This document shows, piece by piece, positions 5,717 to 49,707 of a stretch of DNA of 64,000 nucleotides. Both the position numbers and the translations under genes were made by a program. Location of the stretch: NCBI GenBank assembly GCA_033854515.1, contig JAWOJY010000003.1:2254-66253 (forward strand). The letters are read 5' to 3'. Numbering within the stretch: the first letter of the stretch is position 1; each line of letters starts with the position of its first letter. Under the pieces are notes generated by a model, which searched no databases, was not told the DNA's origin, and saw only the letters and a program-made list of their open reading frames with translations. The stretch is from Nitrospirota bacterium. Its GTDB lineage: Bacteria; Nitrospirota; UBA9217.

Positions 5717-5780
5717 AGAGGTGGTTGCGCAGTCACCCTGCGCATCCGTAAGACCTGTATCTTTAATGAGGTGACCGGAA

Positions 5781-6803
5781 ATGAAATATAGTGAACTTGA
5801 GAAGACTGCACGCGACCTCGTGGCAAAAGGCAAAGGCCTGCTTGCAGCCGACGAGAGTCTGCCTACCATAAAGAAACGCTTCGCAGGCATCAACCTCGAA
5901 TCAACGGAAGAAACGCGACGATCCTACCGAGAGATGCTCTTTACGACGCCGGGGATTGAGGAATTCATCAGCGGCGTGATCATGTTCGACGAAACGCTCC
6001 GCCAGAAATCGTCGGACGGGGCGCCCTTTCCCGATGTGCTCAGACGTAATGGTATCATACCGGGGATCAAGGTCGACAAGGGGGCCTGGGCTTTACCCGG
6101 CTTTCCGGGCGAGAAAATAACAGAAGGCCTCGACGGCCTGCGCGACCGCTTCGCCGAATATCGCGACCTGGGAGCACGCTTTGCGAAGTGGCGCGCCGTG
6201 ATATTGATCGGACCCGGCATCCCGACGCGCTACTGCATCGACACCAACGCTCACCTGCTCGCCCGCTACGCGGCTCTAAGCCAGGAAGGCGGCCTGGTCC
6301 CCGTGGTGGAACCCGAAGTGCTCATGGACGGAGGTCATGATATCGGGCGCTGCGAAGAAACGACCACCGCAGTTTTAAAGAGCGTATTTTCCGAACTTCA
6401 TGAGGCCCGGGTAGCGCTCGAAGGCATGCTGCTCAAGCCCAATATGGTCGTGGCGGGCAAGGACTCTCCAAAACAGGCAAGCGCGCAGGAAGTGGCTGAA
6501 GCCACCATCAGGTGTTTGCGCCGGACGGTGCCTTCGGCTGTACCGGGCATTGTCTTCCTTTCCGGCGGCCAGAGCCCCGAACTTGCCACGGAACACCTGA
6601 ATGCCATGAACGCCATGGGTGTCCATCCGTGGGAGGTCAGCTTCTCATTTGCGCGGGCGCTCCAGGAGCCTCCGCTTAAAATATGGAAGGGATCGCCGGC
6701 CAGCGTACAGGCTGCGCAGAAACAATTTTATCACCGTGCGCGGTGCAACAGCGCCGCCCGCTACGGCAAGTACTCAAGGGCAATGGAGAAACTCGCGGCG
6801 TAA
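5781..6803 (+). CDS. fba: Fructose-bisphosphate aldolase, class I
   Basis: GKGLLAADES and IPGIKVDKG are class I FBA signatures; 340 aa; RBS GAGGTGA upstream. Confidence 0.85.
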   Translation: MKYSELEKTARDLVAKGKGLLAADESLPTIKKRFAGINLESTEETRRSYREMLFTTPGIEEFISGVIMFDETLRQKSSDGAPFPDVLRRNGIIPGIKVDKGAWALPGFPGEKITEGLDGLRDRFAEYRDLGARFAKWRAVILIGPGIPTRYCIDTNAHLLARYAALSQEGGLVPVVEPEVLMDGGHDIGRCEETTTAVLKSVFSELHEARVALEGMLLKPNMVVAGKDSPKQASAQEVAEATIRCLRRTVPSAVPGIVFLSGGQSPELATEHLNAMNAMGVHPWEVSFSFARALQEPPLKIWKGSPASVQAAQKQFYHRARCNSAARYGKYSRAMEKLAA

Positions 6804-6951
6804 CCCGGACAAGCCCGCTGAAGACGGACGCGAAGATTTTTGAAGCCTTTCGAGCCGGCACGGAAGTTAAATATGTTCTCTTCCCGTGAGTGGCGTTTAG
6901 AAAAAATTTTTTTGTCTTTTTGTAAAAATGCAATCCCGCCGATTCACTTCC

Positions 6952-6981
6952 TTGACAAAGCAAGAGCATTGATTGTATAGT
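6952..6981 (+). promoter_or_regulatory. Sigma-70-type promoter candidate (TTGACA-N18-TATAGT) upstream of the 7060 gene
   Basis: A perfect -35 hexamer and a near-consensus -10 preceded by TG, located in the 170-bp gap after fba. Confidence 0.35.
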
Positions 6982-7059
6982 GTCGTCGTAACTTTTCCGG
7001 TCGACGCAGCTTGCAGATGCATGCTCAAACGGATCACTGTTCAACATCCATGGAGAACA

Positions 7060-7710
7060 ATGAGCTCGATAACTGAATATCTCGAGAAGTACGCATTGAT
7101 TTCGCTCGAAAAACAGGAAAAGTTCGTTAAACTCGTGGGCGAACATACCCGGGAACTGGATCTCGACTCAGGAATGATCCGGTTTAATACAGAACTTGTA
7201 TTTCCCTTTCAGGTGCTCGGCACGGAATCGGACAACACCCTCACCTGGCTCTGGGCATGGTCAGAAGAACAGACCGAGATCCAGGAAACTCTCTTAAAGT
7301 CTTCCCGTGCGCTGAAAACCTGGGGCGAACGCGAAGGCGTCCATGAGTTCGTCGTTCCAGCGGTTGATCTCGATAAGACAGACGGCCGTGTCGTTTCCCT
7401 TATTGCCGCCGAGGTCTGCAAGGCAAGCTGTTATTATCGCGATCCCTACGAGGGCGGCGCCCTGTATGTGCTGATCTTCAGCAGAGCTATCGACGATCAA
7501 CAGCCTTTCGATTTCTTCGGCCTTTCCAGGCGGTTTTCCGAACTGCTGTCCCTTTACGACATCAACCATAAGAATGTGCTCGTGTCTTATTTCCGGATGA
7601 AAGGGCTGCCCATTGCCGAAAAAGACCGTTTCGTCGAAGCAGAGCTGGCGAATGGGGAAACACTCAAGGCGGAGTTCGACGAAGGGGGCCGCTTGAAGTC
7701 TTTTCGCTGA
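7060..7710 (+). CDS. Hypothetical cytoplasmic protein
   Basis: ORF trimmed to the ATG at 7060, which has GGAGA 4 nt upstream. A sigma-70-like promoter (TTGACA-N18-TATAGT at 6952..6981) overlaps the ATG of the longer ORF, which argues for the later start. Confidence 0.5.
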   Translation: MSSITEYLEKYALISLEKQEKFVKLVGEHTRELDLDSGMIRFNTELVFPFQVLGTESDNTLTWLWAWSEEQTEIQETLLKSSRALKTWGEREGVHEFVVPAVDLDKTDGRVVSLIAAEVCKASCYYRDPYEGGALYVLIFSRAIDDQQPFDFFGLSRRFSELLSLYDINHKNVLVSYFRMKGLPIAEKDRFVEAELANGETLKAEFDEGGRLKSFR

Positions 7711-36268: not shown

Positions 36269-37609
36269 CTAACTTTCTTCAGCCTCTTTCAGTATGCGCC
36301 ACAGGCTGGTTCTCGAAATGCCGAGCACTTCGGCCGTCTTGGATCTGTTGCCGCCGTACATATCGAGCACTTTTTCCGCGTATTCCTTGTTCAATTCATC
36401 GATGGTCTTGATCCTGTCCGGCTCGAGCGTATCGATCTGGAACATCTTGATGCTCTGGGGCAGGCTCGCGGGGGTAATGAGAGAATCCCGTTCGAGGATG
36501 ATCGCCCGCTCGATGATGTTCTCAAGCTCCCGCACGTTTCCCGGGAAGCTGTACGTCATGAAGATGTCCATTGCGTCTTTGGAGAACCCGCTTATCTTTT
36601 TGCGGGACTTTGGGAGGTGTTTTTCAAGGAAAAACCTGCACAGCGGAGAAATGTCCTCCCTGCGCTCCCGGAGCGGCGGGGTGAATATCTCCATGATGTT
36701 GAGCCGGTAGTAGAGGTCCTCCCTGAACCTCCCTTCCGAGATGAGCGCCCGCACGTTCTGGTTCGTCGCCGCAATAAACCGTACATCAACTTTGATGGGC
36801 CGTGTGCCGCCGACTCTGTAGAATTCGCCTTCCTCGATCACCTTGAGGAGCTTCGCCTGGAGGTTCGGAGACATCTCGGCGATCTCATCAAGGAACAGAG
36901 TGCCCGTGTCGGCGATCTCTACGAGACCCTGTTTGGTCCTGTGAGCTCCGGTGAACGCCCCTTTCTCGTGGCCGAACAGCTCGCTGGCGAGAAGTTCCTC
37001 GGTCAGCGTCGCGCAGTTTATGGAGAGGAATGGCATGTCTTGGCGCCTGCTCGTGAAATGAATGATCTTGGCCAGGAGACTCTTTCCCACGCCGGTCTCA
37101 CCCGTGAGAAGAACGTTGCAATCGGAGTCCTTGATCCCCTCGATGATGCTGAGGATGTTCTTCATGCTCTCGCTTTTCGCGATGATCGATGCCTTCTTAT
37201 CCATTCCGAGGTATGTTTTAAGGGCGATGTTCTCCTTTCTCAGGGTCTTCTGTTCCCGGATCTTGTTCACCTTCAGGATGAGTTCGTCCAGATCGTAGGG
37301 CTTCGTAATGTATTCGTATGCCCCTTTTTTCATTGCATCCACCGCCGACCCGATGCTCCCGAATCCGGTCACGATGATGACCTCCGTATCGAGCTGTTTT
37401 TCCTTGATTGTGTCGAGGAGTTCGATGCCGGTTAGACCCGGCATTTTTATATCGGCGATGAGCACGTCATAGGCGCGGGTTTCCATGTTCTCGAGCGCTT
37501 CCGTTCCGTTCGTTACGCCGGTCACGTCATACCCTTCCTTGGCAAGAGTATTCATGAGGTGCTTCAGGGTTATTTCTTCATCTTCAGCTACAAGTATCTT
37601 AAAAGCCAT
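36269..37609 (-). CDS. Sigma-54-dependent transcriptional activator, NtrC family (REC, AAA+ sigma-54 interaction domain, Fis-type HTH)
   Basis: REC domain (ILVAEDEE, DVLIADIKMPG); Walker A GETGVGKSLLA; GAFTGA motif (EKGAFTGA); the ESELFGHEKGAF region; C-terminal HTH (RSKTAEVLGISRTSLWRILK). Confidence 0.9.
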   Translation of the reverse strand: MAFKILVAEDEEITLKHLMNTLAKEGYDVTGVTNGTEALENMETRAYDVLIADIKMPGLTGIELLDTIKEKQLDTEVIIVTGFGSIGSAVDAMKKGAYEYITKPYDLDELILKVNKIREQKTLRKENIALKTYLGMDKKASIIAKSESMKNILSIIEGIKDSDCNVLLTGETGVGKSLLAKIIHFTSRRQDMPFLSINCATLTEELLASELFGHEKGAFTGAHRTKQGLVEIADTGTLFLDEIAEMSPNLQAKLLKVIEEGEFYRVGGTRPIKVDVRFIAATNQNVRALISEGRFREDLYYRLNIMEIFTPPLRERREDISPLCRFFLEKHLPKSRKKISGFSKDAMDIFMTYSFPGNVRELENIIERAIILERDSLITPASLPQSIKMFQIDTLEPDRIKTIDELNKEYAEKVLDMYGGNRSKTAEVLGISRTSLWRILKEAEES

Positions 37610-37710: not shown

Positions 37711-39300
37711 TCAATCGGAAAAAACAATAATAAACGTCGTTCCCCTGCCTTCTTCGCTTTCAACCAGTATTCCCGCATTGTGTTTTTGTATGATATTAAA
37801 CACGACGGCCAGTCCCAGACCGTTGCCTTTGTCCTTTGTGGTGAAAAAGGGCTCGAAAATCTTATCGAGAGAGTCTTTCGGGATTCCGCTGCCCGAATCG
37901 GACACCTTCACGGTCACTGATCCGTTCGACTTTCTGACGGATGTCCGGATGTCCCCTTCACCATGCATGGCTTCGACCGCGTTCGTAAACAGGTTGATGA
38001 AAACCTGCTCCAACTGCGCGGGATCGGCCTGTACGTAAACACGATGCGGATCGGCGTCGATAGAGAAACGGATGCCGTTCAGGACTTGAGGAGACACGGA
38101 GAGGCGTTTATAAGAGCTGCCGATCAACCCGATCAGTTCCACGTCCCGGAGCTGCGGCTTCTTGCCCCGCGCGAACTCAAGGAGATCTCCCACAATCTTT
38201 TTCACTCTGAGCGTTTCTCCTTCGATATCGTCCACGGCTTCTCTCGCTGCGGGCGGAAGGGCACCGCCGGCCTCTTTTGAAAGCACCTGAGCCGACAGAT
38301 AAATGTTATTGAGGGGGTTATTGAGTTCATGTGCCACCCCCGACGCAAGAGTGCCGATGGCGGCAAGCTTCTTACTCCGCATCAGCTCTTTGTTTTTCCG
38401 GTCGAGTTCTTCGTCTCTTCGTGCGAGTTGTCCCTGCAGGGTATTGAACTCGTCTATAAGCACCCCCACTTCATCGCGGACGTTGTCTTTTGACGGCGGA
38501 TCGTACAGATGCATGTACCATCCCGTGCCGGCCTTTTCCACTATCTTTATCAGGAGCATCAATCGTCGCACGACGTTGCCGCTGATAAAGAACAGCGTCC
38601 CTATGCCGACGATAAAGAACAGCGGGAAAAATATGATAATCGCCGTCTGCGAGACGCGGGTCACGGTCTTCGCATGTTCACGCGCTTCGATATCGAGGTC
38701 ATTGGCTATAACGACGATGTCCTCGCCGTTTTTTCTCAACGTGCCGACTTCCGCATCGAGTTTTCTGAGCCCCGTGACCAGATTGTGGTCCGGCGGCAGC
38801 ATGAACACCGTTTCGAGAATATCCGCCGCGTCCGACGGGCGATGCAAAAAATCCGATTCCATGAACAGGGAAAATTCGGCAGAGTTACGATATGAGGGTT
38901 TTATACGATCAAATGCAGTTGTCAGGCTCTCTCCAGACGCTTCTACTTCATCAAACCTCTGCTCGTACTTCTTCAACCGGTCCCGCAGGGCCAGTTCATC
39001 CTTCCAGTCGATGTGGGGGTTCGCTGCCAGGATATCCTGCATTTCCTTGGTACAGAGATGTACGGCCTTCGATTCTTCCGCGACCTGCTGGGGACTTTTG
39101 GCAAAGAAATAGTTGGTTTCATGCCGTCTCAGATCGAGGGCCTTCCTCATCACAAGGTCCGTTGTCTCCAGGTATCGTATCTCCCTCTTGATCTCCACAA
39201 AATTTATGTATTCGAATACCGTGAGGATGGCGATGATGGCGGCGCTGATGAGAAAACCGATGGTTATTTTCTTCTTAAGTGACACGGCTTTGGCAACCAC
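37711..39300 (-). CDS. Sensor histidine kinase (paralog 1 of a tandem pair)
   Basis: TM, sensor with RRHETNYFFA, TM, HAMP, H-box GVAHELNNPLNNI, HATPase boxes (NLFTNAVEA, DSGSGI, GNGLGLA); begins with GTG. Confidence 0.85.
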   Translation of the reverse strand: MVAKAVSLKKKITIGFLISAAIIAILTVFEYINFVEIKREIRYLETTDLVMRKALDLRRHETNYFFAKSPQQVAEESKAVHLCTKEMQDILAANPHIDWKDELALRDRLKKYEQRFDEVEASGESLTTAFDRIKPSYRNSAEFSLFMESDFLHRPSDAADILETVFMLPPDHNLVTGLRKLDAEVGTLRKNGEDIVVIANDLDIEAREHAKTVTRVSQTAIIIFFPLFFIVGIGTLFFISGNVVRRLMLLIKIVEKAGTGWYMHLYDPPSKDNVRDEVGVLIDEFNTLQGQLARRDEELDRKNKELMRSKKLAAIGTLASGVAHELNNPLNNIYLSAQVLSKEAGGALPPAAREAVDDIEGETLRVKKIVGDLLEFARGKKPQLRDVELIGLIGSSYKRLSVSPQVLNGIRFSIDADPHRVYVQADPAQLEQVFINLFTNAVEAMHGEGDIRTSVRKSNGSVTVKVSDSGSGIPKDSLDKIFEPFFTTKDKGNGLGLAVVFNIIQKHNAGILVESEEGRGTTFIIVFSD

Positions 39301-39448: not shown

Positions 39449-41086
39449 TCAGTTCTCCCCGGCGTCGTTAACGGACGTTCCGACGGCGCCGGAAACAACC
39501 CCTCCCGCCCCCGTCTGTTTCACCGGGAATATGATAATAAACGTTGTTCCCTTTTCCGGTTCGCTTTCAACCAGTATTTCAGCGTTATGCTTTTGCAGGA
39601 TATTGAACACGATTGCCAGCCCCAGCCCCGTGCCCCTGTCCTTCGTTGTAAAAAAAGGCTCGAAAATCTTGTCAAGGGAGTCCTTCGGGATGCCGCATCC
39701 TGAATCGGTTATTTTCATCGTTACTGATTCATCCGACTTTTTGATGGAGACCCGGAGACTGCCTTCATAGCGCATCGCTTCGACGGCATTCATAAAGAGA
39801 TTGATGAAAACCTGCTCCAACTGCGCGGGATCGGCCTGTACACACACGCGTTCGGGATAGGAGTCGACGGAAAAGCGTACCTTGTCCAGGGAGTGAGACA
39901 TTTTGAGATGCTTGAAGGAATGGTCGATCAGGCCTTGTAATTCCACGTCCTCCACCTGCGGTTTTCTGCCGCGCGCGAACTCGAGGAGGTCACCGACGAT
40001 CCTCTTCACCCGAAGCGTTTGGCCGACGATGTCGCCGAGGGCGTTTTTCACCGCAGGCTGAATATGTTCGTTCGCCTCTTTCAAAAGCACCTGGGCCGAC
40101 AGATAGATATTGTTGAGGGGGTTATTGAGTTCGTGCGCCACGCCCGACGCCAGCGTGCCGATTGCGGCCAGCTTCTTCGCTTGCATGAGTTCTCTGTTTT
40201 TCCGGTCGAGTTCTTCTTCTCTCCGGGCAAGCTGGTCCTCCATATCGTTAAATTTGTCGATCAGCAGTCCCACCTCGTCATGAGCGTTGCCTTCGGAAGA
40301 AGAAACGGAAATGTGCGGATAGTTTCCTTTGCCGGTCTTTTCGATTACCTTGATCAGGAGCATCAGTCTCTTGACGGCGCTGCCGCTGATGAAAAAAAGG
40401 GTCCCGATGCCGACGATGAAAAAAATGGGGAAGATCACAAGGATGGCCAGTTGGGAAATGCGGATAACCGTCTCCGTGTTTTCCCTTGCAACTTTGTCGA
40501 GTTCTTTGGAAATAATGAGGATATCTTCACCGTTTTTTCTGAGTGCGGCAATGTCGCCGTCGAGCCTCCTGAGCCCGAAGATTAGTGCGTGATTTGAGGG
40601 AAGCAGGAACCCCTTTTCGAGGACATCAGCCGCCTGAGACGGACGTTCGAGAAACGTCGACTCTATCATCGGGAAGAACTCGGCATGGCTCCGGTGCGCG
40701 GGTTTTATCCCTTCAAACGCCTTCGTCAGGCCGCGAACCGCGACTTCGATGGTGCTGAATCGTTGTTCATATTCGTTGATCCGGTCCCGCAAGGCGAGTT
40801 CATTCTTCCGGTCGATGTGCGGGTTTTTTGTCAGTATGTCCCTGAGCTGCCCCACGTAGTCATGTACCGCCTCTGATTCTTCCTTTGCCATCTGAGTACT
40901 GTAGAGGAAGTAATTCTTTTCGTGCCGCCGGAGTTGGAGGGACTTCCTCATAATCGTATCGGTCGTCTCAAGATACCGGGTTTCCTTTTTGATTTCTATG
41001 AAATTGACATATTCAAACGCCGTAAGCACGGCGATGATTGCGGCGCTTATCAAAAAACTGATTGCTATTTTTTTCTTGAGTGACAT
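39449..41086 (-). CDS. Sensor histidine kinase (paralog 2 of a tandem pair)
   Basis: Near-identical layout and many identical blocks relative to 37711..39300 (MSLKKKIAISFLISAAIIAVLTAFEYVNFIEIK..., GVAHELNNPLNNI, DSGCGI, GTGLGLA); start set at the ATG of MSLKKK. Confidence 0.85.
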   Translation of the reverse strand: MSLKKKIAISFLISAAIIAVLTAFEYVNFIEIKKETRYLETTDTIMRKSLQLRRHEKNYFLYSTQMAKEESEAVHDYVGQLRDILTKNPHIDRKNELALRDRINEYEQRFSTIEVAVRGLTKAFEGIKPAHRSHAEFFPMIESTFLERPSQAADVLEKGFLLPSNHALIFGLRRLDGDIAALRKNGEDILIISKELDKVARENTETVIRISQLAILVIFPIFFIVGIGTLFFISGSAVKRLMLLIKVIEKTGKGNYPHISVSSSEGNAHDEVGLLIDKFNDMEDQLARREEELDRKNRELMQAKKLAAIGTLASGVAHELNNPLNNIYLSAQVLLKEANEHIQPAVKNALGDIVGQTLRVKRIVGDLLEFARGRKPQVEDVELQGLIDHSFKHLKMSHSLDKVRFSVDSYPERVCVQADPAQLEQVFINLFMNAVEAMRYEGSLRVSIKKSDESVTMKITDSGCGIPKDSLDKIFEPFFTTKDRGTGLGLAIVFNILQKHNAEILVESEPEKGTTFIIIFPVKQTGAGGVVSGAVGTSVNDAGEN

Positions 41087-41213
41087 GGTTTTTTTGTTAC
41101 CGGTATGGTACTTTAACACAGAGACTTTCCCCGTGCAACACAAAAGAAAAAGGCCGAAGCAACGCATCGTCGGCGTCCCTGCTTCAGCCTGGCAAAATTC
41201 ACTGCGGCTGTTA

Positions 41214-42068
41214 TTACGACCTGACAATGAGCACGGGGCACCCGGCGTGTCCGATGACCTTTTCGGCCACGCTTCCCATGAGGAGCCTTCTCAAGCCGGT
41301 CCTTCCGTGGGACCCCATGACGATGATGTCCGCTTTTTTCCGCTGTGCGAGGTCGATGATCGCCTGGTACGCTTCTGCCTCGGCTATGAACGTCTCCGCC
41401 TTGATTCCTGCTTCTTCCGCCTGCTTCCGGATCCCCTCGACAAAGCTTTTCGCCTTTTTGACAAGGTCCTCCATGGCCTGCGGGGCCTCGGCGTAAAATT
41501 CTGACGGGACATCTACCACGCAGATGATAATGAGCCCGCCGTTGTATGATTCGGCGAGACTTATAGCCTTCGCGGCTGCAGTCATGCTGAATCGGGACCC
41601 ATCGGTCGCGATCAGGATTTTGTTCCATCCCACCGCTGTCCGAAGCGGCATGACGAGCACATCACGCTCGCTGTGGCCGATGACCCGCGCCGTGACGCTG
41701 CCGACCAGCGCCCGCTCGAAACCGGTCCGGCCTTTTCTGCCCATGATGATAAGATCGGCGTTTTCCGCAACGGCAAGGTCGACGATCCGCTCATGGGGAG
41801 GGCCTTCCTCACAGACGGTCTTGATAAGCGCGCCGTCCGCCTGGGCCATCTTCTGTGCTTCGGCAAGCGCGGCCTCGCAGGGCCTTCTCAGGGACTCCAG
41901 GATGTTTTTCGTGCCCACGAATTCCAGGTCACCCTCGAAGGGAGGAGCAACTGAAGTGACCGTTATCCAGCTCTTTTCATTGAGCGCGAGCTTGAAGGAT
42001 TCCCTCAATGCGTTCATGCTTGACTCCGAGCCGTCAACGGCCACCAGCAGTTTCCTATATCTTCCCAT
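41214..42068 (-). CDS. Universal stress protein with tandem Usp domains
   Basis: Two Usp repeats (KLLVAVDGSESS...LIIMGRKGRTGFERALVGSVTARVI and ILIATDGSRFS...IIVMGSHGRTGLRRLLMGSVAEKVI). Confidence 0.85.
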   Translation of the reverse strand: MGRYRKLLVAVDGSESSMNALRESFKLALNEKSWITVTSVAPPFEGDLEFVGTKNILESLRRPCEAALAEAQKMAQADGALIKTVCEEGPPHERIVDLAVAENADLIIMGRKGRTGFERALVGSVTARVIGHSERDVLVMPLRTAVGWNKILIATDGSRFSMTAAAKAISLAESYNGGLIIICVVDVPSEFYAEAPQAMEDLVKKAKSFVEGIRKQAEEAGIKAETFIAEAEAYQAIIDLAQRKKADIIVMGSHGRTGLRRLLMGSVAEKVIGHAGCPVLIVRS

Positions 42069-43146
42069 GCTCCAGCGCTCCCTCGGAGAGCCTGAGTTTT
42101 TCTTCCCTGCGCCCTTGCATCATGGCACGCAGCACGATGATGGCACCCAGCAGTAATGCGGCGATCATTATACCAAAGCTCGTGGTCTTGAGCAACCCGG
42201 CCGTGCCGTCGCCGAGCTTCTGGATGAGGCCGAGCTGGGACAGGTACACCGGGATCATGAGCCCGCGGCTGAAGAGCACGATGACCATGATCAGGCCCAT
42301 GACGACCTTGATCATGTACGGCTTGACGTAGGTGGTGCCGATGGCGCCGAGCTGAATGCCGAAGAGCGAGCCCGCGAGAATGATCAGGGCGAGCCGGATA
42401 TCGACGAGCCCGCTCATGGCGTACTTGAACGAGCCGCCGAGACCCATGACGAATGCGATCACAAGCTCAGTGGCCGAGGCCATGAGGCTGGGCGCGCCCA
42501 TGACGTAGATCATCGAAGGGACGCCGATGAAGCCGCCGACGGCGATCGTAGCCGCCAGCATGCCCGTCGCAAAACCGAGAGGAACGGTAAAGAGCACCGA
42601 AATGCGGGCGTTCAGGCTCTTGAAGTAGACCATCGTGCCCGGAATGTTGATTGACTGGACCCAGCGCGCCAGCTTGCCGGCCTTCTCTTCTTCGAGCACG
42701 TTGCCCGACTTGTAAGTCTTATAGGCGTCACGCAGCACAAAGCCGCCCACCAGCGCGAGGATCACGACAAAGGCCACGCTCACGTACAGGTTCGAACCTG
42801 CATCGCCGAAGGCTTTCTTGATGTTTTCCTGGATGTGGGCGCCGTAGAGCACCCCTGCTTCCGCCGAGATGCCGAGCACGATACCGAGTTTCACGTCGAC
42901 CTGGCCGTACTTGGCCCGTTTGATCGCCCCGACGAGCGCCTTGGGAAACTTGTGGCACATGTTGCTCGCGACCGCCACGAGCCCGGGGACCCCCAGGCTC
43001 ATCATGCCCGGCGTAAGCACGAAAGCCCCGCCCGATCCGATAAATCCGCTTACGAGACCCCCGACAAAGCCCACACCGAAAAGGTAGAGGACAGTGATGG
43101 TGTCGAGGTTGATGAAATTAGCCGCTGTTCCGATGACGTCGTGCAT
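42055..43146 (-). CDS. TauE/SafE (TSUP) family permease
   Basis: GxGGG-type signatures (GFIGSGGAFVLTPGMM and IAVGGFIGVPSMIYVMG); 8-10 TM helices. Confidence 0.8.
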   Translation of the reverse strand: MHDVIGTAANFINLDTITVLYLFGVGFVGGLVSGFIGSGGAFVLTPGMMSLGVPGLVAVASNMCHKFPKALVGAIKRAKYGQVDVKLGIVLGISAEAGVLYGAHIQENIKKAFGDAGSNLYVSVAFVVILALVGGFVLRDAYKTYKSGNVLEEEKAGKLARWVQSINIPGTMVYFKSLNARISVLFTVPLGFATGMLAATIAVGGFIGVPSMIYVMGAPSLMASATELVIAFVMGLGGSFKYAMSGLVDIRLALIILAGSLFGIQLGAIGTTYVKPYMIKVVMGLIMVIVLFSRGLMIPVYLSQLGLIQKLGDGTAGLLKTTSFGIMIAALLLGAIIVLRAMMQGRREEKLRLSEGALEHGKI

Positions 43147-43147
43147 G

Positions 43148-43402
43148 TTATTTTACCTCCTTCTTTTTTTTGGCCGCCTCGATACCCATGACCGTCCAGA
43201 AATGACCGGTGAATTGGCCATGTACAAACGAAAATACGAACGCCAGTGTTATGGGCAAAAAAGCATAGAGCCCGCCCCTGCCGAACGTGCCGTTCACCAT
43301 GTCCTGGTTGGACAGGAGCGCGGCGTACAGCGCCATGGAGACGACTCCCATGAACAGCATCTTGCCGACCGGTTTCTTTTTCGTGCTGCTGTGTGCCATC
43401 AC
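43148..43402 (-). CDS. Small 2-TM membrane protein encoded immediately upstream of the TSUP permease
   Basis: 84 aa; two hydrophobic helices; 1-nt gap to the permease gene. Confidence 0.5.
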   Translation of the reverse strand: MMAHSSTKKKPVGKMLFMGVVSMALYAALLSNQDMVNGTFGRGGLYAFLPITLAFVFSFVHGQFTGHFWTVMGIEAAKKKKEVK

Positions 43403-43456
43403 TGTGTTCCTCCTTGAATTATAGGGTTATGCTCCGAGATAAAGCCGTTTGCTCTC

Positions 43457-43948
43457 TCACGCGCGCATGCTGTCCGCAACCACCACGAGCGGGCACCTGA
43501 GGTCCTGCCACAGGTCGGAAAGCCTCCTGTCCCCGCTGTTGCAATCAACGTCGAGCCCTTCCGACGACTCGATGACGACGAAGAGTACGGAGCTCTTGGC
43601 ATTCGTGTAATCGATGATTTCCTGTTTCATGCAGCCGGTCCTGTGCGTCACCGCATACTCAATCCCCGCGGTCCTGAGTTCTGACAGGAAATCGCGGAGC
43701 AGCGGGTCCGAATCAGCGCCGGACGCGAGCTCCCGCGAAAGATACAGGATGTCAAGCCCCGCCCTGACCCGCATGCAGGTGTTCACGGCGTACTTCAACG
43801 TCCCGGCGTCCACCTGCCCGCGCCTCACGGCGAGCAGTACCCTTCGTTCCTGTTTCAGCAACTCTTCGGCCTGGCCGAACGCTCCTTCCTCGGCGAAGGA
43901 ACCCGCAGTCAGCGCCTTTTCAATTTTGTCGATCATTTTGTTGATCTT
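43457..43948 (-). CDS. Divergent Usp-like protein with an N-terminal SFAEEG motif
   Basis: Start at the ATG with GAGGT upstream. The N-terminus MVHKINKMIDKIEKALTAGSFAEEGAFGQAEELL carries the motif; a Usp-like C-terminal part follows (VLFVVIESSEGLD...LVVVAD). Confidence 0.5.
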   Translation of the reverse strand, partial: KINKMIDKIEKALTAGSFAEEGAFGQAEELLKQERRVLLAVRRGQVDAGTLKYAVNTCMRVRAGLDILYLSRELASGADSDPLLRDFLSELRTAGIEYAVTHRTGCMKQEIIDYTNAKSSVLFVVIESSEGLDVDCNSGDRRLSDLWQDLRCPLVVVADSMRA

Positions 43949-43998
43949 ATGTACCATTTTCCCTGCTACCTCGGGAGCGGCACAGGAAGCCTCCGCTC

Positions 43999-44211: not shown

Positions 44212-44228
44212 TATCAAGTACCGTGCCA
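44212..44228 (-). promoter_or_regulatory. Sigma-54-like promoter candidate: TGGCAC-GGTAC-TTGATAA
   Basis: Perfect -24 element and correct spacing, but the -12 element reads TTGA rather than TTGC; about 25 nt upstream of the RBS of the small gene. Confidence 0.35.
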
Positions 44229-44568
44229 CAATGAAACAAACATATAAGTCATTGTATTCGCAGAATTAAAATTTTAAAATGAAGACCAACCTCAAGAAAA
44301 TATTGTTTCAAAAAGCAATAGTTCAATTTTAAATGCAACCATATTATTGAAAAAAAGAATAATTCTAATCGATACAAAAACGAACCTATATTGCAAAATG
44401 CAACAATTTTGTTTTTCTGCTCTTAAAACTAGACGCTTGCCGGAAAAAAGCGGCCCTGTTGTGGACGGCATTTTTTTGTGGTATAGTGAATTTTGTTGGA
44501 GAAAAAAGCTTTCTCTCGTCGAGTGCACATCACGGCTTCAATCGGGAAACTGCGAGGATGGGCGGACC

Positions 44569-46593
44569 GTGAAATTTTTCAAAAAATCGGACGACAGCCA
44601 GCAGGAAACAATCATCGAAGAGCTGCGCCAGAAGATCGCCGCGGCCGCTATGCCGCCGTCCGTCGAGAAGATTGCGGAGCAGGAACTTGAAATTCTGACA
44701 AAGATAAACTCTTCGTCTGCCGAATACACGATCGGGCTCACCTATATCGACTATCTCGTCTGCCTTCCGTGGAACAGAAAGACCGAGGACAATCTCGACA
44801 TCGCCCGCGCTGAAAGAATACTGAACGAGGACCATTACGGTCTGAGGAGGACCAAGGAGCGCGTTCTGGAGCACCTTGCGGTCAAAGTGCTGAATAGGGA
44901 CAGGAAGCCGCAGATTCTGGTCGTCGACGACGAAGAGATCGCGAGGAAAAACCTGGCCCATATCCTGACAAAGGAAACCTATGCCGTAACGACCGCTTCG
45001 AACGGCAAAGAAGCGCTCAGGGCGCTCGATGCCTTCGAGTTCGACGTCGTGGTCACCGATCTCAGAATGGGCTCCATCGACGGGATGGAACTTCTCGAAA
45101 AGATCACCGTGAAATATCCGGCCGCGAAAGTGATCATCGTAACCGGGTATGCCACGATCCCGTCGGCTATAGAGGCCACGAAAAAAGGGGCCTTCTCGTA
45201 TATCGCAAAACCGTTCCAGCTCGAAGAGGTCCGCGCAGCGGTCAAACAGGCGCTGGAAAAGAAAGCTCGCGTAAAGAGCACCAAGGGTTCCGTCCTCTGC
45301 TTTGTGGGCCCTCCGGGCACGGGGAAGACGTCGCTCGGCAGGTCTATTGCCGGAGCCCTGGGACGAAAATTCACAAGGATATCGCTGGGCGGTATGAAAG
45401 ACGAGGCCGAGATACGCGGCCACCGGCGGACTTACGTCGGCGCGAAACCCGGCAGGATCATCGAGGAAATCCGCAGAGTGGAATCCGCCAACCCGGTCAT
45501 CATGCTCGACGAGCTGGATAAGATCGGGCACGACTTCAAGGGAGACCCCGCCTCGGCGCTCCTCGAAGTGCTGGATCCGGAACAGAACCACAGTTTTGTC
45601 GACCACTATCTCGACGTGCCCTTCGACCTGTCGAGCGTCATGTTCATCCTCACGGCGAACATTATGGAACACATCCCCTCCCCGCTCAGGGACCGCATGG
45701 AACTCATCGAATTTTCCGGATATACCCATGAAGAGAAGGCCCGCATCGCCGAACTGTTCGTCATCCCGCGCCAGATACGGGAAAAGGGGCTGACTGAGCG
45801 CCCGCCCGTCTTCACGCGCGAGGCAGTGGACAGGATCATTCGCGAGTACACCCGCGAGGCTGGCATCCGGAACCTCGAAAGAAAGATTGCGTCGGTCTGC
45901 AGAAAAGTAGCCAAAGAACTGGTCGACACAAAAGGAAATCTAGGCGCCGTGACCATAACGCCGGATGCCGTAGAGCGCTACCTCGGCCGGAGAAAGTATT
46001 ACTTCGAAGTGGTCGAAGAAAAGGACCGAATCGGCGTCACGACCGGCCTGGTCTGGACCGAGGCGGGCGGGGACATCATTTTCGTCGAAGCAGCCATGAT
46101 GAGGGGAAAAAAAGAGCTCCTGTTGACAGGTTCGCTCGGGGACGTCATGAAGGAATCGGCGCAGGCCGCCCTGAGCTACGTGAGGAGCAACGCGGCTTCG
46201 CTCGGCATTCCTGAGGATTTTTTCGAGCGCTACGACATCCACATCCACGTGCCGTCAGGAGCGATCCAGAAGGACGGGCCCTCGGCCGGGCTCGCCATGG
46301 TCATCGCCCTTATATCCCTCCTTACAAAACGTCCGGCGAAACGGGACGCGGCCATGAGCGGTGAAATAACCCTCACCGGCAGGGTCCTCCCCGTGGGCGG
46401 GGTCAAGGAGAAAATCCTGGCCGCCCGGCGCGCCAACGTCAAGACCGTCATTCTTCCCGCCAAGAACCGGGTGGACGTTGAAGATTTAACCGACGAGGCT
46501 TCGAACGGCATCACCATCCGTCTGGTCGATACTGTAAACGAAGTGGCCGACCTGGTTGTCACGAGGGAAAAGGAATTACCGGGACAATCATAA
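44569..46593 (+). CDS. Lon-family ATP-dependent protease with a response-regulator receiver domain inserted before the AAA+ module and no canonical N-terminal LON substrate-binding domain
   Basis: A Lon pre-AAA helical segment ([21 protein letters not shown], which aligns with E. coli Lon DTDHYGLERVKDRILEYLAV) leads into a complete REC domain (ILVVDDEE...[15 protein letters not shown]...VIIVTGY...YIAKPF). Walker A (GPPGTGKTS), the Lon sensor region and the catalytic protease Ser (DGPSAG) and Lys (KEKILAA) follow. The low-GC 5' part of the long ORF looks non-coding, so the start was set at the in-frame GTG 44569 behind GAGGA; the ORF could start as early as 44347. Confidence 0.85.
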
Positions 46594-46751
46594 GTCAAAA
46601 GGCATGACGACTTACATTCCGTCATTCCGTCTGCATCCGCATATTGCAGGAGAGCAAGATGGGCTGACCCGCCTGCCCTGAACCATCCCTTCCTGATTTT
46701 TCCTTCCTGTTACGTTACGCAGATCGCGTCCTCTGTTGCTTTTTGCAATAG

Positions 46752-48344
46752 ATGATGGTAAAATCCACCATGTTTTCTTTCCCCCAGAGTATCCGCCAGA
46801 AGATCACGCTCGGCTACTACGCCATCATCGTCCTTATCGTCGGGCTGTCGCTGTTCATGTTCATCGAACTGAGGCTTGTTGAAAAGCGGATCATGTTCGG
46901 CGAGACCATATCGGATTTTTTTGATACCACCCTGGAGATCAGAAGGTTCGAGAAGAACTATTTCCTCTACGCCAAGGGACCCGATTACGAGGAGAACATA
47001 ACCTATGTAACCAGGGCGCAGGAAATCCTCGAGGAGAGCATTCCCGGTTTCAGCACCATCGCCAGCGCGGAGCAGATACAGACGCTGAGGGACAACCTCG
47101 GGTCGTACAAGGCCCTCATGGAACAGTATTCGGGAGCGAAGTCGAAGGGGCTTCACCTCGTTGTTCTGGAAGAGAGCATCAGGAAAAAGGGAAAAGACAT
47201 CATTACCGCTGCCGAGGCGATTTCAAAAAGCGAGCGGAAAAATCTCCAGGCCCTCCTCGCGCGGCACCAGGGCATCCTCGTCCTTTCGATCGCCGCTCTC
47301 TCCGTTCTGGCGATCATCATCGGCCAGGTGCTCTCGCGGATAGTGGTGCGGCCCCTGAAATCCCTGGAAGAGAGCATGGGCGTGATCGCCGAGGGAAAAT
47401 TCGAACGGGTATCGATCAACTCAAAAGATCGGGAGATCGTCTCGCTTACGAAGGCCTTCAATAAAATGCTGCGGGAACTCGAGCTCCACGAGCGGCACCT
47501 GATCCAGTCGGAGAAGCTCGCATCCCTCGGCACGCTCCTGTCTGGCGTAGCCCACGAGCTCAACAATCCCCTTTCCAACATTTCGTCGTCCAACCAGATC
47601 CTCACGGAAGAATTAAAAGAGTGCCTGGGATCGTGGGTCGCGGGCCCGGGAACAGGGAAAAGAGAACAGGAAAGCAAGGACAAACGTCCCTCCGCATCCC
47701 CGCCCGTGAACCCGCATTTCGTCATGGAACTCGTCGCGCAGATAAACGACCAGACCGACCGCGCCCGGAACATCGTCCGCTCCCTCCTCGATTTTTCGCG
47801 GGACAGGGAGTTCAAGAAGGAGACACTGTCGCTGAGAAAGCTTTTCGACGAAACCATCCAGTTCATCAGGGGCGACATTCCGACGAACATCACCGTTACC
47901 CTCGACGTGCCCGACGATATCTCCGTGTTCGTCGACAAGCAGCGGATCCAGCAGGCTTTCCTGAATCTGATAAAGAACGCCGTAGACGCTACGGCCCCGA
48001 AGGAAGGTAGGATATCGATCATCGCGCACCGGCAGCTTGCCATTGAAGACACCGAAGACGACAGGATCGGGATCTACAATTACCTGAAGTACCGCGGCGA
48101 ATGCCCTTTTGAGGAGGACACCGTAGACATCGAAATCCAGGACACCGGTTCGGGCATACCGATCGAGATAATCCCGAAGATCTTCGATCCCTTCTTCACC
48201 ACAAAGGAGGTGGGCAAGGGATCGGGGCTCGGTCTCTTTATCGTCCATGAGATTGTAAAGGAGCACGACGGCTGCATCGCGGTGGACAGCGAACCGGGCA
48301 AAGGAACATCATTTCTCATACGATTGCCGATGAAGGAGTCATAA
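46752..48344 (+). CDS. Sensor histidine kinase (TM, EKNYFLY-type sensor, TM, HAMP, HisKA, HATPase_c)
   Basis: RRFEKNYFLY sensor motif; H-box GVAHELNNPLSNI; N-box NLIKNAVDA; G-boxes DTGSGI and GSGLGLF. Its stop abuts the downstream sigma-54 activator (1-nt gap). Confidence 0.85.
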   Translation: MMVKSTMFSFPQSIRQKITLGYYAIIVLIVGLSLFMFIELRLVEKRIMFGETISDFFDTTLEIRRFEKNYFLYAKGPDYEENITYVTRAQEILEESIPGFSTIASAEQIQTLRDNLGSYKALMEQYSGAKSKGLHLVVLEESIRKKGKDIITAAEAISKSERKNLQALLARHQGILVLSIAALSVLAIIIGQVLSRIVVRPLKSLEESMGVIAEGKFERVSINSKDREIVSLTKAFNKMLRELELHERHLIQSEKLASLGTLLSGVAHELNNPLSNISSSNQILTEELKECLGSWVAGPGTGKREQESKDKRPSASPPVNPHFVMELVAQINDQTDRARNIVRSLLDFSRDREFKKETLSLRKLFDETIQFIRGDIPTNITVTLDVPDDISVFVDKQRIQQAFLNLIKNAVDATAPKEGRISIIAHRQLAIEDTEDDRIGIYNYLKYRGECPFEEDTVDIEIQDTGSGIPIEIIPKIFDPFFTTKEVGKGSGLGLFIVHEIVKEHDGCIAVDSEPGKGTSFLIRLPMKES

Positions 48345-48345
48345 C

Positions 48346-49707
48346 GTGGAAAACCAGGCAAAGATACTGATCGTCGACGATGAGAGGGTCGCCCTCAAGA
48401 ACCTCGAGCACGTCATGAAAAAAGAGGGCTATGACGTGACCGCGACACAGAGCGGGGCGAACGCCGTCAAGCTCCTCGAAGAGCAGCAGTTCGACATTGT
48501 GCTTACCGACCTGCGCATGGAAAAGGTCGACGGCATGCAGATTCTGAAGCGGTGCCATGAGCTGTATCCCGACACGGAGGTGATCATGATAACCGGCTAC
48601 GCCACTCTCGAATCCGCGGTCAACACCATGAAGCACGGCGCGTTCCATTACATCGCGAAACCCTTCAAGCTCGACGAGGTGAGAAAGATAGTCAAGGACG
48701 CCGCGGAAAAGATCAGGCTGAAGAAGGAGAACCGGCAACTCAGGGAGCAGCTCGAAACCTACCAGGGAAAGGTCAAGATCATCACCCAGGATCCCACGAT
48801 GCAGCGACTGCTCGACACCGCGCGCCAGATCGCGCCGACCGACTGCAACGTCATCATCACCGGCGAGAGCGGCACGGGCAAGGAGCTCTTCGCCCGCTAC
48901 ATCCATTTCAACAGCAAGCGCTCGGGGGGCCCTTTCTTCGCCGTGAACTGCGGCGCCTTTACCGAGGAACTGCTGTCGAACGAACTCTTCGGACACGAGA
49001 AGGGCGCGTTCACCGGCGCGAACGCCATGAAGAAAGGCCTCATCGAGATGGCGTCCGGCGGGACCCTGTTCCTCGACGAGGTGACCGAGATGCCCGCGTC
49101 GGCGCAGGTAAAGCTCCTTCGGGTCATTCAGGAGAAGGAAGTCATGCGCGTCGGCGGGACCGAGGCCCTGAAAGTGGACGTCCGCTTCATTGCAGCGACG
49201 AACCGCGACATCCACGACACGATGAAGAGCGGCAAGTTCCGGCAGGACCTGTACTTCAGGCTGAACGTCGTCTCCCTGAACATCCCTCCCCTGTCCGAGC
49301 GCAAGGACGATATCCCGCTTCTCACGTACTACTTCCTGAAGAAGTACTCCGTGCTCATGAAAAAAGAGATCACGGAGGTATCGCACGAAGTGCTCAACCT
49401 TCTGATGAACTATGATTTCCCCGGCAACGTCCGGGAACTCGAGAACATTATCGAACGGGGAGTGGCCCTCGCGAGCGGCGCGAGGATCGAGATCGCCCAC
49501 CTGCCGGAAGACCTGCGGGAGCTGAGCATCCGCACGTTCAGGAAGAAGGACGGAAAGATCCCGTCGCTCGAAGACCAGGAAATGGCCTATATCCAGTGGG
49601 TCCTGCAGGAGGTCGCCGGGAACAAGACCGTTGCGGCCCAGTTTCTCGGGATCGACCGCGTATCGCTGTGGAGGAAGCTCAAGAAGTACGGATTGGAGGA
49701 GGAGTAG
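48346..49707 (+). CDS. Sigma-54-dependent transcriptional activator, NtrC family
   Basis: GTG start; REC domain (ILIVDDE, DIVLTDLRMEKVDG); Walker A GESGTGKELFA; GAFTGA motif (EKGAFTGA); C-terminal HTH (KTVAAQFLGIDRVSLWRKLKK). Confidence 0.9.
   Translation: MENQAKILIVDDERVALKNLEHVMKKEGYDVTATQSGANAVKLLEEQQFDIVLTDLRMEKVDGMQILKRCHELYPDTEVIMITGYATLESAVNTMKHGAFHYIAKPFKLDEVRKIVKDAAEKIRLKKENRQLREQLETYQGKVKIITQDPTMQRLLDTARQIAPTDCNVIITGESGTGKELFARYIHFNSKRSGGPFFAVNCGAFTEELLSNELFGHEKGAFTGANAMKKGLIEMASGGTLFLDEVTEMPASAQVKLLRVIQEKEVMRVGGTEALKVDVRFIAATNRDIHDTMKSGKFRQDLYFRLNVVSLNIPPLSERKDDIPLLTYYFLKKYSVLMKKEITEVSHEVLNLLMNYDFPGNVRELENIIERGVALASGARIEIAHLPEDLRELSIRTFRKKDGKIPSLEDQEMAYIQWVLQEVAGNKTVAAQFLGIDRVSLWRKLKKYGLEEE

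Follow-up and report, generated by a model that had tools for sequence, protein, structure and literature searches.

In Desulfovibrio vulgaris Hildenborough, the genes DVU3303-DVU3304-DVU3305 have been described as 'a three-component system', in which DVU3305 is a sigma-54 response regulator, DVU3304 a kinase, and DVU3303 a response regulator containing a lon protease, annotated as 'ATP-dependent protease La, truncation' (Rajeev et al., 2011, PMC3333781). According to the same work, these genes are induced by high pH, heat shock and stationary phase, DVU3305 binds its own operon and DVU3302-3298, the DVU3302/3303 intergenic region is bound by DVU2394, another regulator, as well, and orthologues of the pair occur in Thermodesulfovibrio yellowstonii (Nitrospirota), Thioalkalivibrio and Dechloromonas; phospho-activation of the Lon-protease response regulator was already proposed there as a hypothesis (PMC3333781). 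The DVU3305 regulon was later listed as 'general stress response, transmembrane transport' (Kazakov et al., 2015, PMC4641369), and DVU3303:DVU3305 displayed pairwise cofitness above 0.9, these genes being detrimental in chlorate and the target anion transporter DVU3299 being needed in it (Trotter et al., 2023, PMC10102598). In this work, we analyzed a 64,000-nucleotide stretch of DNA (the window) from a Nitrospirota bacterium (GenBank assembly GCA_033854515.1, contig JAWOJY010000003.1), in which positions 44569-46593 encode a Lon protease with an embedded response-regulator receiver domain (REC), hereafter referred to as REC-Lon.

The window locus resembles the DVU3303-3305 system in three main respects: REC-Lon clusters with a histidine kinase and a sigma-54 response regulator, the Lon gene being the first of them; the divergent operon, coding for hypothetical, membrane (TauE-type) and UspA proteins, corresponds to the description of DVU3298-3302; and a GTTGCA-N3-TGCAAC activator site, with one mismatch, is found in the shared intergenic region. 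On the other hand, the host lineage is Nitrospirota, two additional kinases and a second sigma-54 activator extend the divergent arm, and the activator encoded next to REC-Lon displays GAFTGA, whereas GAFSGA is listed for DVU3305 (PMC4641369). We consider it very probable that the window REC-Lon represents, at this locus, the Lon-protease response regulator of a DVU3303-3305-type system; for the most part, it is a re-discovery of a system flagged in the Desulfovibrio literature since 2011.

REC-Lon is a LonA-type AAA+ protease lacking the PUA-like N-domain. The coding sequence and its domains are as follows, with positions numbered in the window and residues in amino acids (aa):

44569..46593, plus strand: REC-Lon coding sequence, GTG start, TAA stop, 674 aa (open reading frame, Pfam, NCBIfam, alignment to PDB entries)
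44569..44901, plus strand: Lon N-terminal 3-helix bundle and AAA+ helix alpha0, aa 1-111 (alignment to 3m6a, helices of the predicted structure)
44902..45270, plus strand: inserted receiver domain, aa 112-234 (D164 codon at 45058-45060)
45271..45948, plus strand: Lon AAA+ module, large subdomain and lid, aa 235-460 (Pfam AAA and Lon_lid, invariant motifs)
45955..46560, plus strand: S16 Lon protease domain, aa 463-664 (S572 codon at 46282-46284, K615 codon at 46411-46413)

The longest form of this frame spans 44347-46593 (+) and is open without interruption; 44569 is the likely start, since the orthologues are 664-669 aa long and begin with MxFFxK. The NCBI entry P0001, 99% identical to REC-Lon, has 731 aa and starts at the ATG at 44398, being 57 residues longer than the 674-aa form; as this ATG falls within the activator site at 44390-44404 and the extension is conserved in no orthologue, its start was probably mis-called. 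REC-Lon thus called begins at the equivalent of approximately residue 250 of Bacillus subtilis Lon, and the DNA upstream is intergenic and contains the activator site.

Pfam models assigned Response_reg to aa 116-226 (E-value 2.6e-30, with all 111 model positions covered), AAA to aa 243-382 (3.5e-25), Lon_lid to aa 405-455 and Lon_C to aa 463-664 (9e-84), while no match was obtained in the protein to LON_substr_bdg (PF02190, the PUA-like N-domain) at E <= 0.01, nor to Sigma54_activat (PF00158) or HTH_8. The (beta-alpha)5 CheY-like fold of receivers and the S16 protease domain with the Ser-Lys dyad, a LonA feature, are both present in the protein. Among NCBIfam models, TIGR00763 'endopeptidase La' scored 740 bits (cut-off 608) in two stretches, and the E. 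coli-type equivalog NF008053 scored 602, under its cut-off of 891. A canonical Lon was not found within the window, whose two largest other open reading frames code for a PEP-utilising enzyme and a GAF histidine kinase.

The alignment to the PDB by phmmer defined the insertion. Residues 16-111 of REC-Lon correspond to residues 10-105 of B. subtilis Lon (3m6a), and residues 235-670 to residues 103-536; the receiver of approximately 123 residues is therefore a clean insertion between alpha0 and beta1/Walker A, with no Lon residue lost. In 43 orthologues from species-level genomes, the receiver residues D120, D121, D164, T192 and K214-P215 were invariant, as were Walker A K253, Walker B D314/E315, pore-loop Y289, sensor-1 N364, the Arg finger R376, sensor-2 R434 and the Ser572-Lys615 protease dyad. 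In a wider alignment of 94 sequences, with 55-78% identity to the window REC-Lon, D121, D164, T192, K214 and P215 remained invariant and D120 was kept in at least 90%. Furthermore, not a single indel was observed from Y59 to Walker A in these 94 sequences, K96 and D121 being always separated by 24 residues and K214 and G247 by 32. Mean pairwise identity was 0.62 for REC, 0.58 for the N segment and 0.67 for the protease; the receiver is conserved to the same degree as the rest of the protein.

These results bear out the anatomy given in the original prediction, which had been made from the sequence alone: a Lon pre-AAA helical segment (helix alpha0), a receiver placed before Walker A with a DD pair (D120/D121), a phospho-acceptor in VVVTDLRM (D164) and the conserved T192 and K214, intact AAA+ and S16 domains with the catalytic Ser in DGPSAG (S572) and Lys in KEK (K615, the second K), and a missing LON N-domain. 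The structure prediction proposed there as a check gave a concordant picture, as the AlphaFold2 (AF2) monomer model (predicted local distance difference test, pLDDT, 81; predicted template modelling score, pTM, 0.74) displays a LonA-like fold with the receiver between alpha0 and AAA beta1. In this model, the N-terminal helices span residues 6-26, 30-45, 51-65, 78-88 and 93-111; alpha0 (93-111) reaches REC beta1 (115) after three residues, and the long REC alpha5 (218-239) enters AAA beta1 (242-246) after two. The Lon portion superposes on 3m6a over 493 of 496 residues at 2.4 A. As modelled, the coupling between receiver and ATPase looks rigid and geometry-dependent, with no floppy tether.

Compared with canonical LonA (E. 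coli Lon, B. subtilis LonA 3m6a, Meiothermus taiwanensis LonA 7fd4/4ypl), REC-Lon shares the 3-helix bundle, alpha0, the AAA+ module, the lid and the S16 Ser-Lys protease, whereas it lacks the N-terminal region of approximately 240 residues (PUA-like substrate-binding domain and long helix) and carries the 123-residue receiver between alpha0 and beta1. The receiver itself is of the NtrC/AtoC type, its best NCBIfam match being AtoC and its best structural match the phospho-NtrC1 REC, and, as in activators of the NtrC family (NtrC1 1ny5/1zy2, DctD 1l5y, NtrC4 3dzd), it lies directly N-terminal of AAA+ beta1/Walker A with alpha5 as the connector. Unlike those activators, REC-Lon has a protease ring as its output instead of a sigma-54 remodelling ring, an ATPase without the GAFTGA loop, a connector of approximately 12 residues without a coiled-coil linker, and a Lon segment also N-terminal to the receiver. 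A copy of the inactive NtrC1/NtrC4 layout was considered for the REC-AAA portion and found no support in the monomer model, which aligned with the solved inactive NtrC4/NtrX arrangements over 186-199 residues at 6-9 A.

Two-component phosphorylation coupled to regulated proteolysis by an AAA+ protease is also a property of CpdR (Caulobacter) and of RssB (E. coli, acting on RpoS), which are separate receiver proteins functioning in trans as ClpXP adaptors. The original prediction had seen in REC-Lon a fused version of the CpdR-type adaptor logic; this analogy is loose, as CpdR acts in trans on ClpXP and here the receiver lies in cis within Lon. The NCBIfam models of CpdR and RssB match the REC-Lon receiver at 66-67 bits, with cut-offs of 180 and 700, respectively. 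Since its receiver is covalently part of the Lon ATPase, and the protease is Lon, REC-Lon does not constitute an adaptor of the CpdR/RssB type, and no adaptor function is evident in it.

With respect to distribution, two database searches were carried out, with the window REC-Lon and with a Desulfarculaceae homologue as queries, and the best 120 matches of each were listed. PF00072 accompanied by AAA and by Lon_C, or by as much of Lon_C as was visible, was present in every one of the 240, and almost all had a length of 664-690 aa. Those with a name are almost always called 'endopeptidase La' or 'ATP-dependent Lon protease'; existing annotation does not flag the receiver. The named hosts belong to Nitrospirota, Thermodesulfovibrionales and, within Desulfobacterota, to Desulfobaccales, Desulfomonilaceae, Desulfobacterales, Syntrophales, Desulfarculaceae and Ca. 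Desulfofervidus; no Desulfovibrio-named match appeared among the matches listed. In contigs representing one genome per species, REC-Lon was found in approximately 50 species, the family amounts to a few dozen clusters at 50% clustering, and the closest relatives of the window protein are from metagenome-assembled genomes (MAGs) of Nitrospirota/Thermodesulfovibrionales. The original prediction was aware of no characterised REC-Lon fusion, and named abundance as the ground for a downgrade. The novelty implied there is not supported: the architecture is abundant, being shared by 120 of the 120 listed best matches in each search, and DVU3303 is already present in the literature as a 'lon-protease RR' (response regulator) of a three-component system. 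No biochemical study of REC-Lon was found in the literature, and the fusion is absent from a 2008 survey of serine-protease architectures. Relative to what was found in the published DVU3303 papers, the exact insertion topology with its invariant-length connectors and the paralogy of two receivers described below are additions.

The genes surrounding REC-Lon were assigned as follows:

46752..48344, plus strand: membrane histidine kinase (HAMP, HisKA, HATPase_c), presumed phosphodonor (Pfam, conserved adjacency)
48346..49707, plus strand: sigma-54 response regulator (REC, Sigma54_activat, HTH_8), counterpart of DVU3305 (Pfam)
41214..43957, minus strand: divergent operon, counterpart of DVU3302-3298 (Pfam, synteny, literature), comprising the next four genes
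43457-43957, minus strand: hypothetical protein of 166 aa, first gene of the divergent operon
43148-43402, minus strand: small membrane-protein-like open reading frame, 84 aa
42055-43146, minus strand: TauE-family anion transporter (Pfam)
41214-42068, minus strand: tandem-Usp protein (Pfam)
39449-41227 and 37711-39300, minus strand: two histidine kinases, beyond the Usp gene on the divergent arm (Pfam)
36269-37609, minus strand: second sigma-54 response regulator, at the far end of the divergent arm (Pfam)

The kinase gene beginning at 46752 follows REC-Lon, in agreement with the adjacent kinase previously claimed, and no terminator-like site was found between the two. Among 24 loci whose flanks extend for 4 kb or more on either side, the partner activator was found in 23, the kinase in 20, TauE in 20 and Usp in 19; one more distant REC-Lon locus retains the activator, the kinase and TauE in a rearranged order. 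The kinase and second-activator pair of the divergent arm was seen in many orthologous loci, and the region in the window adds up to three kinases, two sigma-54 activators and one REC-Lon.

Several observations concern individual neighbours. The 166-aa hypothetical protein corresponds to the DVU3301/3302 hypotheticals and is encoded in 34 of 48 orthologous loci; it has no Pfam, NCBIfam or PDB sequence match, and is a candidate partner or substrate of the REC-Lon system. The kinases at 39449-41227 and 46752-48344 share a sensor motif after the first transmembrane helix (RRFEKNYFLY and RRHEKNYFLY, respectively), which suggests related extracytoplasmic sensor domains; in the latter, a low-complexity insert splits the HisKA match, of which only model positions 2-38 align. 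In one Nitrospirota MAG (L049:8001-9993), REC-Lon, TauE, the kinase and the activator are all in several out-of-frame pieces, suggesting assembly frameshift errors or a decaying locus.

Two predicted regulatory elements were located in the intergenic region between REC-Lon and the divergent operon:

44390..44404, no strand assigned: predicted activator site ATTGCAAAATGCAAC, one mismatch to GTTGCA-N3-TGCAAC
44214..44228, minus strand: predicted sigma-54-type -24/-12 element TGGCACGGTACTTGA, from a consensus scan, facing the divergent operon

The DVU3305-type sites GTTGCA-N3-TGCAAC include the T. yellowstonii site ATTGCAAAATGCAACG (Rajeev et al., 2011, Table S9, PMC3333781), and the 15 bases of ATTGCAAAATGCAAC are identical to it. 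This is the only match with one mismatch to the motif in the 64-kb window, and it falls within the REC-Lon/TauE intergenic region. Allowing up to 2 mismatches within 420 bp upstream of REC-Lon, the site is present in 39 of 45 orthologous loci, with a chance expectation, by our own estimate, of approximately 0.016 per locus. It lies 179 bp from the REC-Lon start in the window vs approximately 40 bp in most orthologous loci, the window REC-Lon thus having a longer leader. On the divergent side, TGGCACGGTACTTGA is approximately 176 bp from ATTGCAAAATGCAAC; in most orthologous loci, a TGGCAC-N5-TTGT/A element keeps this fixed spacing (approximately 176-179 bp) to the activator site. For REC-Lon itself, the consensus scan of the window and the orthologous loci yielded no conserved plus-strand sigma-54 promoter, and the scan for a sigma-70 promoter upstream of it nothing convincing; a weak candidate, TTGTGG-17-TATAGT at about 44458-44486, was read by eye. 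A further match to the activator motif, GTTGCTTTTTGCAAT (46735-46749, 2 mismatches), occupies part of the 158-bp spacer between REC-Lon and the kinase gene, 3 bp ahead of the kinase start codon, and may be due to chance, as the kinase abuts REC-Lon without a spacer in many orthologous loci.

The receivers of REC-Lon and of the neighbouring activator are 50-60% identical, and in a midpoint-rooted neighbour-joining tree across loci they formed one group, with the second-activator receivers outside. The mean identity of REC-Lon receivers was 0.53 to those of the partner activator and 0.40 to those of the second activator, and a helix alpha1 consensus, DDExIAxKNLxH, is common to the first two and absent from the second activator. 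As judged from these comparisons, the REC-Lon receiver is a paralogue of that of its partner activator. Since identities within the same locus (0.544) and across loci (0.533) were equal, the duplication is likely to be old, and gene conversion still in progress between the receivers was rejected. Helix alpha1 carries much of the specificity between kinases and their regulators, and the common alpha1 motif therefore fits one kinase feeding both receivers. This suggests that REC-Lon and the partner activator share a kinase.

Our preferred explanation, which we hold to be reasonably probable as a whole, is that a local DVU3303-type REC-Lon is switched on by the shared kinase; on the direction and mechanism of the phospho-control as set out here, the balance is even. 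The membrane kinase would phosphorylate the two paralogous receivers, that of the partner activator and that of REC-Lon at D164. The phosphorylated activator would turn on transcription of the TauE/Usp operon, and phosphorylation of D164 would change the alpha4-beta5-alpha5 face of the receiver, a change that may be relayed by the rigid alpha5-to-beta1 connector and switch on either hexamer assembly or ATPase and translocation, so that one or more specific targets would be degraded only under the stress signal. The original prediction had likewise implied an AAA+ protease switched by phosphotransfer. This is reasonable in view of the invariant phospho-acceptor residues, the conserved kinase neighbour and the published cofitness; a demonstration of it was found nowhere. 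With a cofitness above 0.9, mutants of the kinase and of the protease behave alike, which favours activation by phosphorylation.

A more specific and rather tentative proposal is that phosphorylation of D164 pairs neighbouring receivers through alpha4-beta5-alpha5, replacing the trimer-of-dimers scaffold of the LonA N-domain and gating ring closure and proteolysis, with a target within its own circuit. Such a target might be, for instance, the partner activator or a TauE/Usp product, which would create a post-translational feedback arm. Bacterial regulated proteolysis is usually controlled by adaptors or by substrate modification; if the proposal were true, REC-Lon would be, as far as our searches show, the first AAA+ protease with assembly directly controlled by His-Asp phosphotransfer. 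It would wire a membrane sensor directly to protein degradation, in parallel to the sigma-54 arm of the same kinase, in a family widespread in sulfate-reducing and other anaerobic lineages (Nitrospirota, Desulfobacterota). Being compact and having D164 as an on/off handle, REC-Lon would also be a convenient model for the allosteric control of AAA+ ring assembly.

Several points weigh against the preferred explanation. DVU3303 is the first gene of its operon, and hence the transposon phenotype and the cofitness could be polar effects. In chlorate, loss of the D. vulgaris system helps and loss of its target TauE gene hurts; the circuit is therefore not a simple activator cascade, and a model in which the system activates TauE fails to predict these phenotypes. 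The equivalence to DVU3303 rests on the published description, synteny and the DNA motif. In the predicted sigma-54 promoter, the -12 element is non-canonical, with GC replaced by GA or GT, for which reason the element is a prediction only. Moreover, no measurement of phosphotransfer, ATPase, protease or oligomeric state was found in the literature for any member of the family, and the AF2 model is a monomer, uninformative on the hexamer.

The anatomy of REC-Lon leaves the sign of the regulation unfixed, and the opposite polarity has to be weighed, in which unphosphorylated REC-Lon would be active and phosphorylation would switch it off, its targets being stabilised under stress and degraded without the signal. 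This logic is that of CpdR, whose unphosphorylated form is the active one, and of the NtrC1/DctD type of repression in reverse. The opposite chlorate phenotypes of the D. vulgaris system and of its TauE target imply at least one negative arm somewhere in the circuit. However, the cofitness of kinase and protease indicates that losing phosphorylation resembles losing the protease (with the caveat of operon polarity), and the AF2 REC-AAA arrangement is unlike the solved inactive NtrC4/NtrX ones; we regard the opposite polarity as unlikely, although more probable than the other rivals. Less probable still is a receiver without any gating role in a constitutive protease, either as a phosphate sink for the activator, consistent with a kinase probably shared by both, or as a structural or substrate-docking substitute for the N-domain, consistent with its position N-terminal of the ATPase, where LonA has its substrate-binding domain. 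A pure sink would need neither connectors of invariant length nor an intact protease, and its loss should raise phosphorylation of the activator and have an effect opposite to that of losing the activator, whereas the two phenotypes coincide (again with the operon-polarity caveat); for a purely structural receiver, loss of the acidic pocket would be expected in some lineages, and it was seen in 0 of 94 sequences.

The intactness of the protease also bears on the possibility that REC-Lon is mainly a regulated unfoldase or chaperone, or a direct partner of the activator or kinase, with proteolysis being secondary. Members of the Lon family have chaperone-like activities, and a rare side-branch of the family lacking the lid, the protease and intact Walker motifs keeps the receiver and adjoins kinases, so that some function of the N-terminal half persists without proteolysis. 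In the main family, by contrast, no variation is seen in the Ser-Lys dyad, the pore loop, the Walker motifs or the Arg finger, which points to selection for ATP-driven proteolysis and makes this role very improbable. As for an artefact, namely a chimeric assembly or a frameshift joining a response-regulator gene to a truncated lon, nothing beyond the unusual architecture speaks for it. The frame in the window is single and uninterrupted, and the same junctions recur without indels in independent assemblies, which number in the hundreds, come from several sources and include MAG contigs between hundreds of kb and megabases in size; this recurrence refutes the artefact reading, its probability being negligible.

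The side-branch comprises proteins of approximately 380 aa (P0128, P0398, P0142 and P0145; L083:2788-3936 and 6005-7147, L084:2533-3681 and 5750-6892), which have the Lon 3-helix/alpha0 segment, an intact receiver and the AAA+ large subdomain, and end before the lid and protease. Their Walker A (GPSETGKA, GPSYEAHL) and Walker B (LDGLD, LEGLD) motifs are degenerate. Two metagenome contigs carry two of these genes each, every one of them divergent beside its own histidine kinase, and they are therefore real genes rather than fragments. A possible identity for them is that of pseudo-ATPase response regulators with an origin in REC-Lon. None was found in the window or in the other loci, L001-L082. 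Finally, two further proteins, P0183 (1075 aa) and P0205 (889 aa), display two tandem AAA modules and two Lon lids followed by one Lon_C, an arrangement unrelated to the receiver fusion.

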